A stretch of 64,000 nt of DNA from Escherichia phage GEP001, in the sequence record PV173775; one strand, 5' to 3'. Position 1 is the stretch's first letter. Each line of letters starts with the position of its first letter. The notes under the pieces were generated by a model. The model saw only the letters and a program-made list of their open reading frames with translations. It ran no database searches and had not been told where the DNA came from. The position numbers and the translations under genes were made by a program. Positions 19,523 to 26,689 of the stretch are shown piece after piece.

Positions 19523-20701
19523 ATGTTTAAACGTAAATCTACTGCTGAACTCGCTGCACAAATGGCTAAACTGGCTGGAAATAAAGGTGGTTTTTCTTCT
19601 GAAGATAAAGGCGAGTGGAAACTGAAACTCGACAATGCGGGTAACGGTCAAGCAGTAATTCGTTTTCTTCCGTCTAAAAATGATGAACAAGCACCATTCG
19701 CAATTCTTGTAAATCACGGTTTCAAGAAAAATGGTAAATGGTATATTGAAAACTGTTCATCTACCCACGGTGATTACGATTCTTGTCCAGTATGTCAGTA
19801 CATCAGTAAAAATGATTTGTATAACACTGACAATAAAGAGTACGGTCTTGTTAAACGCAAAACTTCTTACTGGGCTAACATTCTTGTAGTAAAAGACCCA
19901 GCTGCTCCAGAAAATGAAGGTAAAGTATTTAAATACCGTTTCGGTAAGAAAATCTGGGATAAAATCAATGCAATGATTGCAGTTGATGTTGAAATGGGTG
20001 AAACTCCGGTTGATGTAACTTGTCCGTGGGAAGGTGCTAACTTTGTACTGAAAGTTAAACAAGTTTCTGGTTTTAGTAACTACGACGAATCTAAATTCCT
20101 GAATCAATCTGCGATTCCAAACATTGATGATGAATCTTTCCAGAAAGAACTGTTCGAACAAATGGTTGACCTTTCTGAAATGACTTCTAAAGATAAATTC
20201 AAATCGTTTGAAGAACTGAGCACTAAGTTCAGTCAAGTTATGGGAACTGCTGCTATGGGTGGTGCCGCAGCAACTGCCGCTAAGAAAGCTGATAAAGTTG
20301 CTGATGATTTGGATGCATTCAATGTTGATGACTTCAAAACAAAAACTGAAGATGATTTTATGAGCTCAAGTTCTGGCAGTTCATCTAGTGCTGATGACAC
20401 GGACCCCAAAGCATACTGTGGTACTATACAACTATCGGCAATACTGCTGATGATGATTAAAGAGGAAAATAACATGGCTAAAATTGATATTGATGTTGTT
20501 GATTTTGAATATATTGAAGAAATTATTCGTAATCGTTATCCTGAACTCCGTATCATAAGCGCACTAAATGATCCTAATTGCAATGTTTCAGTTGTTATTG
20601 AAGGTCCTTTAAATCGTCTTAAACAATTTATGATTAATGAATATTGTGACGGTATGGATGCTAAAGATGTAGAATTTTACACAGGATTTATTGAGCAGTA
20701 A
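19523..20701 (+). CDS. 32: ssDNA-binding protein gp32; ORF is 392 aa because residues after ADDTD read through a promoter cassette into the next gene (T4 gp32 is 301 aa)
   Basis: First 293 aa match recalled T4 gp32; canonical C-terminal LDDLLNDL and stop absent; frame continues through 20406-20473 into ATG at 20474. Confidence 0.85.
20406..20436 (+). promoter_or_regulatory. promoter-cassette 31-mer (ccaaagcatactgtggtactatacaactatc) embedded in the gene 32 reading frame
   Basis: Identical to 3839-3869. Confidence 0.45.
20474..20701 (+). CDS. hypothetical 75-aa protein (frd.3-like), in frame with and possibly also translated separately from gp32
   Basis: Own AAAGAGGAAAA ribosome site and ATG at 20474 inside the extended gene 32 frame. 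Confidence 0.5.
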
Positions 20702-21165: not shown

Positions 21166-21408
21166 ATGAGATTACAACGCCAGAGCATCAAAGATTCGGA
21201 AGTTAGAGGTAAATGGTATTTTAATATCATCGGTAAAGATTCTGAACTTGTTGAAAAAGCTGAACAACTTTTACGTGATATGGGATGGGAAGATGAATGC
21301 GATGGATGCCCTCTTTATGAGGATGGAGAAAGCGCAGGATTCTGGATTTACCATTCTGACGTCAATCAGTTTAAAGCTGATTGGAAAATTGTGAAAAAGT
21401 CTGTTTGA
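21166..21408 (+). CDS. hypothetical early protein, 80 aa
   Basis: ORF preceded by early promoter 21111-21140 and AAGGAG. Confidence 0.7.
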   Translation: MRLQRQSIKDSEVRGKWYFNIIGKDSELVEKAEQLLRDMGWEDECDGCPLYEDGESAGFWIYHSDVNQFKADWKIVKKSV

Positions 21409-21418
21409 GGAAAATATT

Positions 21419-21754
21419 ATGTCTGACATTCACGTAACTGGAATTGCCCAAGTAAATATCCGCTGCCAATTTAAAACTGTACCTGGGGTGACTCATATTA
21501 CTTTATCACACGACCCATATTCTCGTGGAAGACAGTTAACTGGCGTAATTAAGTTTTTTGGTGGAATTGGCGGAAACGAATTTACTATAGGCGATGACGA
21601 AATTGTTGGCTGTAAATTAAAAGTTCAGAAGGGCGTGTTAGAACTTTTTAGTGATGAAGTTTTTGATGAAATTTCACAAGCAGTTAATAAAGGAATGTTA
21701 ACGTTAATTAAAATGATTAAAGCTAGTGGATATGTTCCCGATCCTTTATATTAG
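21419..21754 (+). CDS. hypothetical protein, 111 aa
   Basis: ORF with GAGG site. Confidence 0.7.
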   Translation: MSDIHVTGIAQVNIRCQFKTVPGVTHITLSHDPYSRGRQLTGVIKFFGGIGGNEFTIGDDEIVGCKLKVQKGVLELFSDEVFDEISQAVNKGMLTLIKMIKASGYVPDPLY

Positions 21755-21762
21755 GAGATAAT

Positions 21763-22005
21763 ATGATTTTTGTTTTTGAATTTATGAATGATGAATTTGA
21801 TTATGCAATTTTTAACGCATTGCATAATCCTGATTTAAATGAATTTAATGAAATGTTTTCTGACGCTTTGAGTATGTCAGAAGAATACTGTGGAGAATGT
21901 CAACGTGTTTGCGTGACAGTCTTTGAAAACAAAGAAAAGACATATGAAGAATTATTCTTTGATGCTAATAAAGCCACTGAATGGTTTATTGAAAGGGGGT
22001 TTTGA
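21763..22005 (+). CDS. hypothetical protein, 80 aa
   Basis: ORF with GGAG site, directly upstream of frd. Confidence 0.65.
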   Translation: MIFVFEFMNDEFDYAIFNALHNPDLNEFNEMFSDALSMSEEYCGECQRVCVTVFENKEKTYEELFFDANKATEWFIERGF

Positions 22006-22593
<588 letters not shown>

Positions 22594-22601
22594 AATAACA
22601 C

Positions 22602-22961
22602 GTGGCGGAAAATATGAATTTTAATTACTACCCTATTCTATTAGAAAAAGACGCGAAACAACCAAAATGGCAGGGTCCTCAGTTTATTAAAGGTGTCTAT
22701 CAATTAGTAGTTCCTAAAGACAAAATTTATAGCAGTTGTTTCACTGAATCCGCTTGTAGTATTTTTGGTAATAATTCTCCGTATTGGAATTTTGATATAA
22801 AGCTTGACAGAAATATCGATATTTGGTTGAAAGCTATGGATATCGGCAATATCACGTTTGATGAGAATAATTATCATATTATTGGTCGCTTTTCCAAGCG
22901 TGGTAAAGAATTGTATTTTACGCCTGAAATTGAAAGAAAATTTGATGCTAAACCGTATTGA
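22602..22961 (+). CDS. hypothetical protein, 119 aa, inserted between frd and td
   Basis: Complete ORF 8 nt after frd stop; no recognisable motifs. Confidence 0.7.
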   Translation: MAENMNFNYYPILLEKDAKQPKWQGPQFIKGVYQLVVPKDKIYSSCFTESACSIFGNNSPYWNFDIKLDRNIDIWLKAMDIGNITFDENNYHIIGRFSKRGKELYFTPEIERKFDAKPY

Positions 22962-23006
22962 TTATTTAGCTTCATAAAATGTATTATAATTTATATAAGG
23001 TACTAA

Positions 23007-23867
23007 ATGAAACAATACCAAGATTTAATTAAAGACATTTTTGAAAATGGCTATGAAACCGATGACCGAACAGGCACAGGAACAATTGCTTTGTTCGGTA
23101 CTAAATCACGCTGGGATTTAACTAAAGGTTTTCCTGCAGTAACGACTAAGAAACTCGCTTGGAAAGCTTGCATCGCTGAGCTAATATGGTTTTTATCAGG
23201 AAGCACAAATGTCAATGATTTGCGTTTAATTCAGCATGATTCATTAATTCAAGGCAAAACAGTCTGGGATGAAAATTACGAAAATCAAGCAAAAGATTTA
23301 GGATATCATAGTGGTGAACTTGGTCCAATTTATGGAAAACAGTGGCGTGATTTTGGCGGTGTAGACCAAATTGTAGAAGTTGTTGATCGTATTAAAAAAC
23401 TGCCAAATGATAGACGTCAAATTGTTTCAGCATGGAATCCAGCTGAACTTAAATATATGGCATTACCGCCTTGTCATATGTTCTATCAGTTTAATGTGCG
23501 TAATGGCTATTTGGATTTGCAGTGGTATCAAAGAAGTGTTGACGTGTTCTTGGGCTTGCCATTCAACATTGCATCATATGCTGCATTAGTTCATATTGTA
23601 GCTAAGATGTGTAATCTTATTCCAGGAGATTTGATATTTTCTGGTGGTAATACTCATATCTATATGAATCACGTGGAACAATGTAAAGAAATTTTACGTC
23701 GTGAACCTAAAGAGCTTTGTGAACTGGTAATAGGCGGATTGCCTTATAAATTCCGCTATCTTTCTACTAAAGAACAATTGGAATACATTCTTAAACTCAG
23801 GCCTAAAGATTTCGTTCTTAAAGGTTACGAATCACACCCTCCTATTAAAGGAAAAATGGCGGTGTAA
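23007..23867 (+). CDS. td: thymidylate synthase (286 aa), uninterrupted (no group I intron)
   Basis: Continuous 286-aa ORF with thymidylate synthase motifs (PPCH active-site region). Confidence 0.95.
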   Translation: MKQYQDLIKDIFENGYETDDRTGTGTIALFGTKSRWDLTKGFPAVTTKKLAWKACIAELIWFLSGSTNVNDLRLIQHDSLIQGKTVWDENYENQAKDLGYHSGELGPIYGKQWRDFGGVDQIVEVVDRIKKLPNDRRQIVSAWNPAELKYMALPPCHMFYQFNVRNGYLDLQWYQRSVDVFLGLPFNIASYAALVHIVAKMCNLIPGDLIFSGGNTHIYMNHVEQCKEILRREPKELCELVIGGLPYKFRYLSTKEQLEYILKLRPKDFVLKGYESHPPIKGKMAV

Positions 23868-23890
23868 TTAATTATTAATTGTGAGGATAT

Positions 23891-24154
23891 ATGATTTTAC
23901 GATTTAAAGATACTTCTGGTGTAGTTCTTTTTACACTTCCTAACCCAAGCGAATTAGAAGTTCCAGGACCAAATCAGCCTATTATCATTTACGGCAAAAA
24001 ATATTATACTCATAAAATGACTCGTGAGTATTTTGATAATAAAATTTCTACAGTTAAAACTTCTTCAGATTGTTACTATGATATTACTGTTTTAACGGAA
24101 AAACAATATGACGAATTATTACCGCGCGGGCCGTCTATGCCAAGTAGTGAATAA
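23891..24154 (+). CDS. hypothetical protein, 87 aa
   Basis: ORF with GAGG site; overlaps next ORF by 47 nt. Confidence 0.55.
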
Positions 24155-24434
24155 ATATAAATCCGACTTTGATGTTAATATTCACCGTGGTACATTTTGG
24201 GGAAATTACGTCGGTAAAGATGCTGGCAGCCGGGAGGCTGCCATTGAATTATTCAAAAAAGATTTTATACGTCGAATTAAATCCGGAGAAATAACTAAAG
24301 CACATTTAGAGCCTTTACGTGGAATGAGGCTAGGATGCACATGTAAACCAAAGCCGTGTCATGGTGATATAATAGCTCATATAGTTAACCGATTGTTTAA
24401 AGACGATTTTCAAGTTGAGGACTTATGCAATTAA
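24108..24434 (+). CDS. hypothetical protein, 108 aa, DUF4326-like (WGN...CxC...CHGD pattern)
   Basis: Motif pattern recalled for DUF4326 family; not verified by search. Confidence 0.55.
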
Positions 24435-26689
24435 TTAATGTTATCAAAAGTAGTGGTGTTTCTCAAAGCTTTGACCCGCAAAAAATTATTAAAGTTTTAT
24501 CTTGGGCAGCTGAAGGAACATCTGTAGATCCTTATGAATTATATGAAAATATTAAATCATATCTCCGTGATGGAATGACCACTGATGACATTCAAACCAT
24601 TGTAATTAAGGCTGCTGCGAATTCTATTTCAGTTGAAGAGCCTGATTACCAATATGTAGCTGCACGCTGTTTAATGTTTGCTCTTCGTAAGCATGTTTAC
24701 GGGCAATATGAACCACGTTCATTTATTGACCATATTTCTTACTGTGTAAATGAAGGTAAATATGACCCTGAATTGTTGTCAAAATATTCAGCAGAAGAAA
24801 TTACATTTTTAGAATCAAAAATTAAGCATGAGCGGGATATGGAATTTACTTATTCCGGAGCGATGCAATTAAAAGAAAAATATCTAGTTAAAGATAAAAC
24901 CACTGGTCAAATTTATGAAACTCCACAGTTTGCATTTATGACTATTGGAATGGCATTGCATCAAGATGAACCTGTTGACAGATTAAAACACGTTATCCGT
25001 TTTTATGAAGCAGTATCCACTCGACAGATTTCATTGCCAACTCCTATTATGGCTGGATGTCGTACTCCAACTCGGCAATTTAGTTCATGTGTTGTTATTG
25101 AGGCAGGTGATTCGCTGAAGTCTATCAATAAGGCTTCTGCTTCAATTGTTGAATATATCTCCAAACGAGCTGGAATCGGCATTAACGTTGGTATGATTCG
25201 TGCCGAAGGTTCTAAGATTGGCACAGGTGAAGTACGCCATACTGGTGTTATTCCTTTTTGGAAACATTTTCAGACTGCTGTTAAATCATGTTCACAGGGC
25301 GGAATTCGTGGCGGCGCTGCTACTGCTTATTATCCTATTTGGCATTTGGAAGTTGAAAATCTTCTCGTTTTGAAAAATAACAAAGGTGTAGAAGAAAACC
25401 GTATCCGTCATATGGATTATGGCGTCCAGCTGAATAACCTAATGATGGAACGTTTTGGAAAGAACGACTACATTACTTTGTTCAGTCCGCATGAAATGGG
25501 TGGCGAGCTTTATTATTCTTATTTTAAAGACCAAAACCGTTTCCGCGAATTATACGAAGCAGCAGAAAAAGACCCTAATATTCGCAAAAAGCGTATTAAA
25601 GCCCGTGAACTATTTGAATTACTCATGACTGAACGATCAGGAACAGCAAGGATTTATGTGCAGTTCATTGATAATACGAATAATTATACTCCGTTTATTC
25701 GTGAAAAGGCACCTATTCGTCAGAGTAACTTGTGTTGTGAAATTGCTATTCCAACAAATGATGTGAATAGTCCTGATGCCGAAATTGGATTGTGTACGTT
25801 ATCTGCATTTGTGTTGGATAACTTCGATTGGCAAGACCAAGATAAAATTAATGAATTAGCAGAAGTTCAAGTTCGCGCTCTTGATAATCTTTTGGATTAC
25901 CAAGGATATCCAGTTCCTGAAGCAGAAAAAGCTAAAAAGCGTCGAAATCTTGGTGTAGGTGTTACCAACTATGCAGCTTGGCTGGCAAGTAACTTTGCTT
26001 CTTATGAAGATGCTAACGATTTAACACATGAACTATTTGAGAGATTACAGTATGGACTCATTAAAGCATCCATTAAGCTCGCCAAAGAAAAAGGACCTTG
26101 CGAATATTATTCAGACACTCGTTGGTCTCGAGGCGAATTACCTATCGACTGGTACAATAAAAAGATTGACCAAATCGCAGCTCCAAAATACGTTTGTGAC
26201 TGGTCGTCGCTGCGGGAAGACCTTAAGCTCTTTGGCATCCGTAATAGCACATTATCAGCACTTATGCCATGTGAGTCATCTTCCCAAGTTTCTAACAGTA
26301 CAAACGGTATCGAGCCTCCACGTGGACCAGTCTCTGTTAAAGAGTCAAAAGAGGGCTCCTTTAATCAAGTCGTGCCCAATATTGAGCATAACATAGACCT
26401 ATATGATTATACATGGAAATTAGCTAAGAAAGGTAATAAACCTTATCTTACGCAGGTAGCTATTATGCTTAAATGGGTATGTCAATCAGCTTCAGCGAAT
26501 ACATATTATGACCCGCAGATTTTTCCAAAAGGAAAGGTTCCAATGTCTGTAATGATTGATGACCTTTTGTACTTTTGGTATTTTGGCGGAAAAAATTTCT
26601 ATTATCATAATACCCGCGACGGTTCTGGTACTGATGATTATGAAATAGAAACTCCAAAAGCTGAAGATTGTTCATCCTGTAAATTATGA
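24425..26689 (+). CDS. nrdA: aerobic ribonucleotide reductase large subunit (754 aa)
   Basis: Size identical to T4 NrdA; class I RNR motifs. Confidence 0.95.
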   Translation: MQLINVIKSSGVSQSFDPQKIIKVLSWAAEGTSVDPYELYENIKSYLRDGMTTDDIQTIVIKAAANSISVEEPDYQYVAARCLMFALRKHVYGQYEPRSFIDHISYCVNEGKYDPELLSKYSAEEITFLESKIKHERDMEFTYSGAMQLKEKYLVKDKTTGQIYETPQFAFMTIGMALHQDEPVDRLKHVIRFYEAVSTRQISLPTPIMAGCRTPTRQFSSCVVIEAGDSLKSINKASASIVEYISKRAGIGINVGMIRAEGSKIGTGEVRHTGVIPFWKHFQTAVKSCSQGGIRGGAATAYYPIWHLEVENLLVLKNNKGVEENRIRHMDYGVQLNNLMMERFGKNDYITLFSPHEMGGELYYSYFKDQNRFRELYEAAEKDPNIRKKRIKARELFELLMTERSGTARIYVQFIDNTNNYTPFIREKAPIRQSNLCCEIAIPTNDVNSPDAEIGLCTLSAFVLDNFDWQDQDKINELAEVQVRALDNLLDYQGYPVPEAEKAKKRRNLGVGVTNYAAWLASNFASYEDANDLTHELFERLQYGLIKASIKLAKEKGPCEYYSDTRWSRGELPIDWYNKKIDQIAAPKYVCDWSSLREDLKLFGIRNSTLSALMPCESSSQVSNSTNGIEPPRGPVSVKESKEGSFNQVVPNIEHNIDLYDYTWKLAKKGNKPYLTQVAIMLKWVCQSASANTYYDPQIFPKGKVPMSVMIDDLLYFWYFGGKNFYYHNTRDGSGTDDYEIETPKAEDCSSCKL

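Follow-up and report, generated by a model that had tools for sequence, protein, structure and literature searches.

The frd–td junction of phage GEP001

The window, that is the whole stretch of DNA analysed, comprises 64,000 nucleotides of the record of Escherichia phage GEP001 (PV173775). The phage is a T2/T6/RB32-like Tequatrovirus, and its frd–td stretch shares about 96% identity with phages JE01 and 132. A preliminary description of this DNA had placed a complete open reading frame (ORF) between frd and td, and the ORF is indeed present at 22602–22961 on the plus strand, with a GTG start and a length of 119 aa. The features of the junction, in window coordinates, are as follows:

22009–22593, plus strand: frd (dihydrofolate reductase, DHFR), 194 aa, TGA stop at 22591–22593
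22587–22601, plus strand: direct repeat copy 1, TAAATGAAATAACAC, spanning the frd stop (repeat search and T4 alignment)
22604–22609, plus strand: weak Shine–Dalgarno-like GGCGGA, 4–5 nt 5′ of ATG 22614, read from the sequences
22614–22961, plus strand: small gene, most likely coding sequence, 115 aa, 13.7 kDa, pI 8.5, PHROG 1928
22962–23006, plus strand: spacer to td, 45 nt
22965–22974, plus strand: MotA-box-like TTTAGCTTCA, a consensus match only
22985–22990 and 22987–22992, plus strand: candidate −10 hexamers TATAAT and TAATTT, 10–12 nt after TTTAGCTTCA, consensus matches
22997–23000, plus strand: td Shine–Dalgarno AAGG, within the spacer
23004–23018, plus strand: direct repeat copy 2, TAAATGAAACAATAC, spanning the td start (repeat search and T4 alignment)
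23007–23867, plus strand: td (thymidylate synthase, TS), 286 aa, uninterrupted

The mechanical ORF call begins at GTG 22602 (119 aa); the conserved start is ATG 22614 (115 aa). The GTG was rejected as the start codon: it is out of frame in phage FelixPlatter, which has a 1-nt deletion between the GTG and the ATG, and phage Shf125875 carries CTG at the equivalent position. The GGCGGA motif before the ATG is kept in T2, FelixPlatter, PHB12 and Shf125875. A ribosome site belonging to the ORF, as proposed earlier, can be found in this motif, but it is a weak one only.

The GEP001 ORF was compared with four orthologues, those of T2, FelixPlatter, Shf125875 and PHB12. Synonymous differences number 17–30 of about 63 sites (dS 0.34–0.75) and non-synonymous differences 1–10 of about 282 sites, with a dN/dS of 0.009–0.052. 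The ORF codes for a protein under strong purifying selection, and these ratios mark the small gene as real and not a chance reading frame. An ambiguous start codon, a weak Shine–Dalgarno sequence and an interval left without annotation in the T2 GenBank entry AY310907 might suggest a fortuitous ORF within an AT-rich spacer holding td regulatory signals. This explanation is scarcely credible in view of the low dN/dS with up to 30 synonymous changes, the 46 clusters in which a profile search recovers the protein family and the confident AlphaFold model (pLDDT 91.9).

Judged by consensus, the spacer segment 22965–22992 may be a middle-mode promoter of td. Promoter-like sites are no commoner than in shuffled sequence, no terminator-like site was found, and an Rfam scan of 21500–24500 gave sub-threshold noise only. 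The candidate promoter is missing from T4 (by deletion) and from the copies in two phages classified as Mosigvirus, Shf125875 and PHB12, which lack about 31 nt of the td spacer. A group I intron with I-TevI is present in the td genes of T4, JE01, KMB39, FL33 and many other close relatives and is not found in GEP001; the td intron and the frd–td junction allele assort independently.

Two small genes, both missing from T4, are situated between frd.1 and frd. The T4 frd neighbourhood, lacking both, is therefore a reduced version on both sides. The GEP001 genes upstream of frd are:

21166–21408: frd.1 (DUF5417)
21419–21754: DUF7247 protein, 111 aa
21763–22005: small protein without a Pfam match, 80 aa

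Elsewhere in the cluster, a 392-aa ORF (19523–20701, junction near 20413–20420) joins gene 32 (ssDNA-binding protein) and frd.3 in one frame. About 106 bp are deleted relative to T2 and T4, comprising the last eight codons of gp32 (LDDLLNDL), the stop, the terminator hairpin GGGGACC...GGTCCCC-T6 and the −35 element of the frd.3 promoter. This junction occurs in one piece in three of 501 phage records, namely phiC600P9 (two entries) and vB_Eco-B1.1. In T4, gp32 makes protein contacts through its acidic C-terminal tail, and a natural gp32–frd.3 fusion is therefore odd.

Family, synteny and alleles of the small gene

The ORF is a full member of PHROG 1928 (labelled ‘RB32ORF229c hypothetical protein’), and no difference from the family was found. 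Residues 8–115 match positions 2–125 of the 126 in the profile (E 7.1e-36), and the same profile is matched by all 62 of the 62 collected homologues. Members occur in T2, T6, RB14, RB32, AR1, JD18-like Klebsiella phages and others, in the same frd–td position; the family is without an assigned function, Pfam model or solved structure. It is a small family: when 1.84 billion representative proteins were searched exhaustively with HMMER, 46 clusters matched. The matches P0031 and P0062, to giant proteins with Ig-like repeats, were discarded as spurious. All members with a checked source come from a T4-like phage or a phage-like contig. An HMM search of the window matches the ORF alone, with no paralogue elsewhere in it.

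The earlier remark that the ORF shows no GIY-YIG or HNH pattern and no recognisable domain is borne out by the searches, with zero Pfam matches to the ORF at E ≤ 10 and no nuclease or other domain among 62 family members at E ≤ 1. Nothing meaningful came out of scans against Pfam, NCBIfam and PADLOC with the ORF and 16–62 family members; PADLOC, a library of defence and not anti-defence proteins, yielded one stray match (E 0.009) in one of 16 members. PDB sequence-profile searches with the ORF returned noise only (E 0.14–0.32). A literature search found no publication on RB32ORF229c, phrog_1928 or an ORF between frd and td. The SegG and marker-exclusion literature contains nothing on the frd–td ORF, and neither does the mention of frd in Petrov et al. 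(2010).

The gene is not new, since it belongs to an already catalogued PHROG family, with function-less annotation. Hundreds of annotated phage genomes list it as a hypothetical protein, and its discovery value is small. The annotation is inconsistent. The T2 gene 32–nrdA entry AY310907.2 leaves the gene (L001 3505–3917) unannotated; BASEL genomes, such as that of FelixPlatter (L010 1504–1851), label it ‘putative homing endonuclease’ and a few other records ‘putative dihydrofolate reductase’.

The DNA of the ORF occurs in 364 phage records, among them T2, T6, RB14, RB32 (as RB32ORF229c), RB33 and AR1; the flanking frd sequence is present in about 510–514. Of the 580 records retrieved by a tblastn search with the ORF, 218 belong to other genera and show less than 60% identity. 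In all the genomes of this set that were inspected, a homologue is located directly behind DHFR, namely in phages CIP9 (Kanagawavirus), JD18 (Jiaodavirus), Moon (Moonvirus), CHI14 (Winklervirus), EcS1 (Kagamiyamavirus), CF-SP2 (Gelderlandvirus), Potts1 (Marfavirus) and Providencia phage PSTRCR_127 (Gualtarvirus). In these genomes, the homologue overlaps the DHFR stop by 1–23 nt, the arrangement expected for translational coupling. The metagenomic contigs encoding the nearest outgroup proteins (63–66% identical) have the gene in the same slot behind DHFR, as do more distant members. The position directly 3′ of frd and 5′ of td is found in GEP001 and 15 of 16 other contexts examined; in the sole exception, P0036, the contig ends right after the gene.

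Cross-genus identity to the GEP001 proteins is 30–66% for the small gene, 45–57% for frd and 73–80% for td, and these parallel values indicate that the small gene has diverged in step with its neighbours. The idea of an insertion into a conserved operon has to be abandoned, given that the same slot is filled by homologues in eight other genera and in metagenomic contigs. The preliminary description would, by its own account, be refuted if T4 and most of its relatives carried a conserved orthologue at this position; half of this is borne out, since most relatives do and T4 does not.

The T4 junction has the ATGA overlap that had been described for it: in NC_000866, the td start (145112) and the frd end (145109) overlap by 4 nt, and the alignment agrees. 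What T4 lacks corresponds precisely to the 417 bp from one direct repeat to the other. The copies TAAATGAAATAACAC and TAAATGAAACAATAC, 417 nt apart, match at 13 of 15 positions, the first nine exactly; T4 retains a single copy, and hence its ATGA overlap. In the alignment, T4 looks just as it would if 417 bp had been deleted between the 15-nt direct repeats. No family member was found elsewhere in T4 in the 135 kb searched, which is all but the late structural-gene block at 76–110 kb. As the gene is conserved behind dihydrofolate reductase in most T4-like phages, T4 has lost it.

Comparison of frd–td junctions across T-even genomes, proposed earlier as a check, distinguishes three alleles in Tequatrovirus:

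A-type: this gene between frd and td, 364 records
C-type: a 68-aa gene (PD112, PYPS2T, pSs-1, ACG-C40), 147 records
T4-type: nothing between frd and td, five of 60 evenly sampled records

The five T4-type records are two T4 entries, vB_EcoM_112, SG1 and FN. Three alleles of one locus explain the presence/absence polymorphism within Tequatrovirus. The term ‘accessory gene’ can be kept in the sense that the gene is dispensable or variable within the genus, but not in the sense of an insertion.

Shf125875 (L022 205–1159) and PHB12 (L023), both classified as Mosigvirus, possess a Tequatrovirus-like frd (97% aa identity; GEP001 Frd is 97% identical to that of Shf125875 and 45–57% to those of other genera) and a copy of the ORF that is 93% identical. 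Frd of Shf125875 is 11 residues longer owing to an additional A ahead of the frd stop, and thereby reaches into the start of the ORF. On sequence grounds, these copies look like an inter-genus exchange of alleles.

A recent insertion, in which a mobile cassette or a free-standing homing endonuclease entered a T4-like ATGA junction, would account for several features: the flanking 15-nt imperfect direct repeat resembles a duplicated td start, the T4 neighbourhood is rich in homing endonucleases (I-TevI, mobE, segG), near-identical copies are present in the two Mosigvirus-classified phages, and the BASEL label, although given without a supporting note, names such an enzyme. No GIY-YIG, HNH, LAGLIDADG, His-Cys, PD-(D/E)xK or EDxHD motif occurs in the ORF or the 62 members, however, nor does any nuclease family, and a 115-aa protein with only Trp, Lys and Gly as invariant residues is too small and featureless for a homing endonuclease. 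Homologues 27–66% identical occupy the same slot in distant genera. The Mosigvirus-classified copies adjoin the 97% Tequatrovirus-like frd, which argues for allele exchange by homologous recombination and not for transposition. No mobility independent of the flanking genes was seen: the gene keeps to one slot, and its divergence is parallel to that of frd and td. A recent mobile insertion is thus very improbable, and the BASEL label was rejected, neither the motifs nor the mobility of a homing endonuclease having been found.

The preferred reading, an old and vertically inherited gene of the Straboviridae frd–td operon that was lost in T4, is highly probable. The ancestor would have had three genes at the junction (A, a paralogue B and the 68-aa gene C), as in CIP9 and contig L013. 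In the simplest history, lineages would have lost A, B and C differentially and would then have exchanged alleles via homologous recombination in frd and td. The Tequatrovirus A-type allele may have been re-acquired by recombination. Repeat copy 1 contains a two-codon mini-ORF (ATG AAA TAA) resembling the td start, and this mini-ORF behind frd could be a footprint of such a re-acquisition; with or without it, the gene is old at this locus. At the frd–td junction, T4 with its 417-bp deletion is the exception and not the norm, and T4-centred annotation therefore misleads here, as in the T2 entry and the BASEL label.

Paralogues, predicted structure and possible function

A second family member (type B) follows type A in 11 of 16 contexts. 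Type B proteins have about 113–125 aa and are marked by a conserved 19-residue insert. Its motif, ALVxQGxxPTIxxYKRNPxxY, stands after the Trp motif and before the HGIY motif. Type B follows type A in most non-Tequatrovirus genera, which suggests that the two form a heterodimeric pair. In CIP9 and contig L013, the order is frd–A–B–C–td, with every junction overlapping. Gene C, of 68/69 aa, is unrelated to the ORF family and was rejected as a member of it; it has zero Pfam matches. At each end the 68-aa gene overlaps a neighbour, the stop of frd through ATGA and the start of td through TAATG. The PYPS2T annotation wrongly calls it a ‘flagellar biosynthesis protein’. The positions of these genes are:

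Type B paralogues: L003 2832–3191; L005 2787–3134; L006 2814–3188; L007 2814–3185; L009 2790–3143; L013 4332–4673
68-aa gene, beginning MSNKLKVKDVPNAM: L011 3291–3497 (PD112); L012; L003 3188–3394; L013 4670–4879

An AlphaFold model built with 23 sequences has a pLDDT of 76.8; with 57 sequences the pLDDT is 91.9 and the pTM 0.84, the topology being unchanged. The predicted elements (115-aa numbering) are strands b1 (6–12), b2 (27–34) and b3 (62–64), a helix (68–77), a short strand (80–82) and a b4–b5 hairpin (86–96 and 99–104). The DSSP element order in both models fits the OB-fold order b1–b2–b3–helix–b4–b5. A Foldseek search against the PDB gave no significant match, the scores being OB-flavoured, and a BFVD fold search retrieved uncharacterised T4-like phage proteins only. 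The models therefore do not establish OB-fold membership: the element order fits, but superposition on solved OB folds is non-significant.

Only W19, G91, K95 and G97 are invariant across 57 members; L9, G27, Y29, F93 and F102 are nearly so, and the common His26 of the family is Lys in GEP001. The 57 members share no conserved constellation of acidic, His, Cys or Ser residues, which points to a binding protein rather than an enzyme. With a pI of 8.5 (family median 8.6), the protein is basic and not acidic, and a DNA-mimic role was rejected.

The product is predicted to be a non-enzymatic, mildly basic small β-barrel with one helix and an OB-like strand order, probably working by binding and made together with DHFR. 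It would be helpful yet dispensable, as its absence from T4 implies. T4 Frd and Td belong to a dNTP-synthetase complex that reportedly interacts with gp32. The grounds for proposing an OB-like binding subunit are that the gene is tightly linked to frd, often with an overlap, and strongly constrained, that paralogues frequently come in pairs and that the predicted barrel is non-catalytic. Most likely, the protein would serve the phage machinery for thymidylate/dNTP synthesis and replication as an adaptor or accessory binding subunit, heterodimeric with its paralogue where both exist and alone in T2-like phages. This adaptor role is a tentative proposal; the best explanation as a whole, evolutionary and functional parts together, falls a little short of an even chance of being right.

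Two other functions deserve weighing. A small binding protein might serve in anti-defence or host takeover, as the preliminary description suggested, inhibiting a host enzyme or an immune sensor and being kept or lost according to the host. The small size, the lack of an enzymatic motif, the place in an early/middle gene region, a presence that is polymorphic within Tequatrovirus (T4 lacking the gene) and the lack of an annotated function anywhere are compatible with this. The synteny behind DHFR is, however, fixed in many genera, with a divergence matching the neighbours, and a dN/dS of 0.01–0.05 is unlike the rapid turnover usual in counter-defence genes. The basic pI excludes a DNA mimic, and PADLOC gave nothing meaningful, though its library does not cover anti-defence proteins. 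A role in anti-defence is accordingly rather unlikely. Marginally less likely still is an OB-like regulator that binds ssDNA or RNA and is unrelated to DHFR, acting on translation (frd–td–nrd mRNAs) or as an ssDNA-binding accessory at the fork. Against it, none of the structural scores reaches significance, the searches matched neither a known RNA- or DNA-binding motif nor a Pfam family, and OB-like barrels bind proteins and sugars too.

A more specific form of the adaptor proposal is more doubtful than either. In this version, the T-even thymidylate-synthesis module would have a dedicated, unrecognised subunit consisting of A and B, an OB-like homo- or heterodimer whose production keeps step with that of DHFR and which docks DHFR/TS onto gp32-coated ssDNA or the dNTP-synthetase complex. 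If this is true, T4, in which the dNTP-synthetase complex was defined, is an atypical reduced variant without the subunit. With a conservation equal to that of DHFR, close linkage to it and a confidently predicted fold, the protein is a reasonable target for studies of the T4 dNTP-synthetase complex.

Comparison with known systems

Among the closest known systems are small OB-fold binding proteins that work as homo- or heterodimers, namely RPA32/RPA14, Stn1–Ten1, PriB and the cores of bacterial SSB. The small ORFs of the T4 cluster, namely frd.1/DUF5417, frd.2/PF03197, frd.3/PF05798, DUF7247, nrdA.1/DUF4326 and nrdA.2/DUF5496, resemble the present gene in being early/middle, small and without an assigned function, in lying among nucleotide-metabolism enzymes and in being variably present in relatives. 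Unlike them, the ORF family is without a Pfam entry, and there is no sequence similarity between them. The free-standing T-even homing endonucleases (seg, mob, I-TevI) are likewise presence/absence-polymorphic inside nucleotide-metabolism clusters. The ORF differs from these in having no nuclease motif or domain, in being half their usual size and in its deep, vertical conservation in one syntenic slot.
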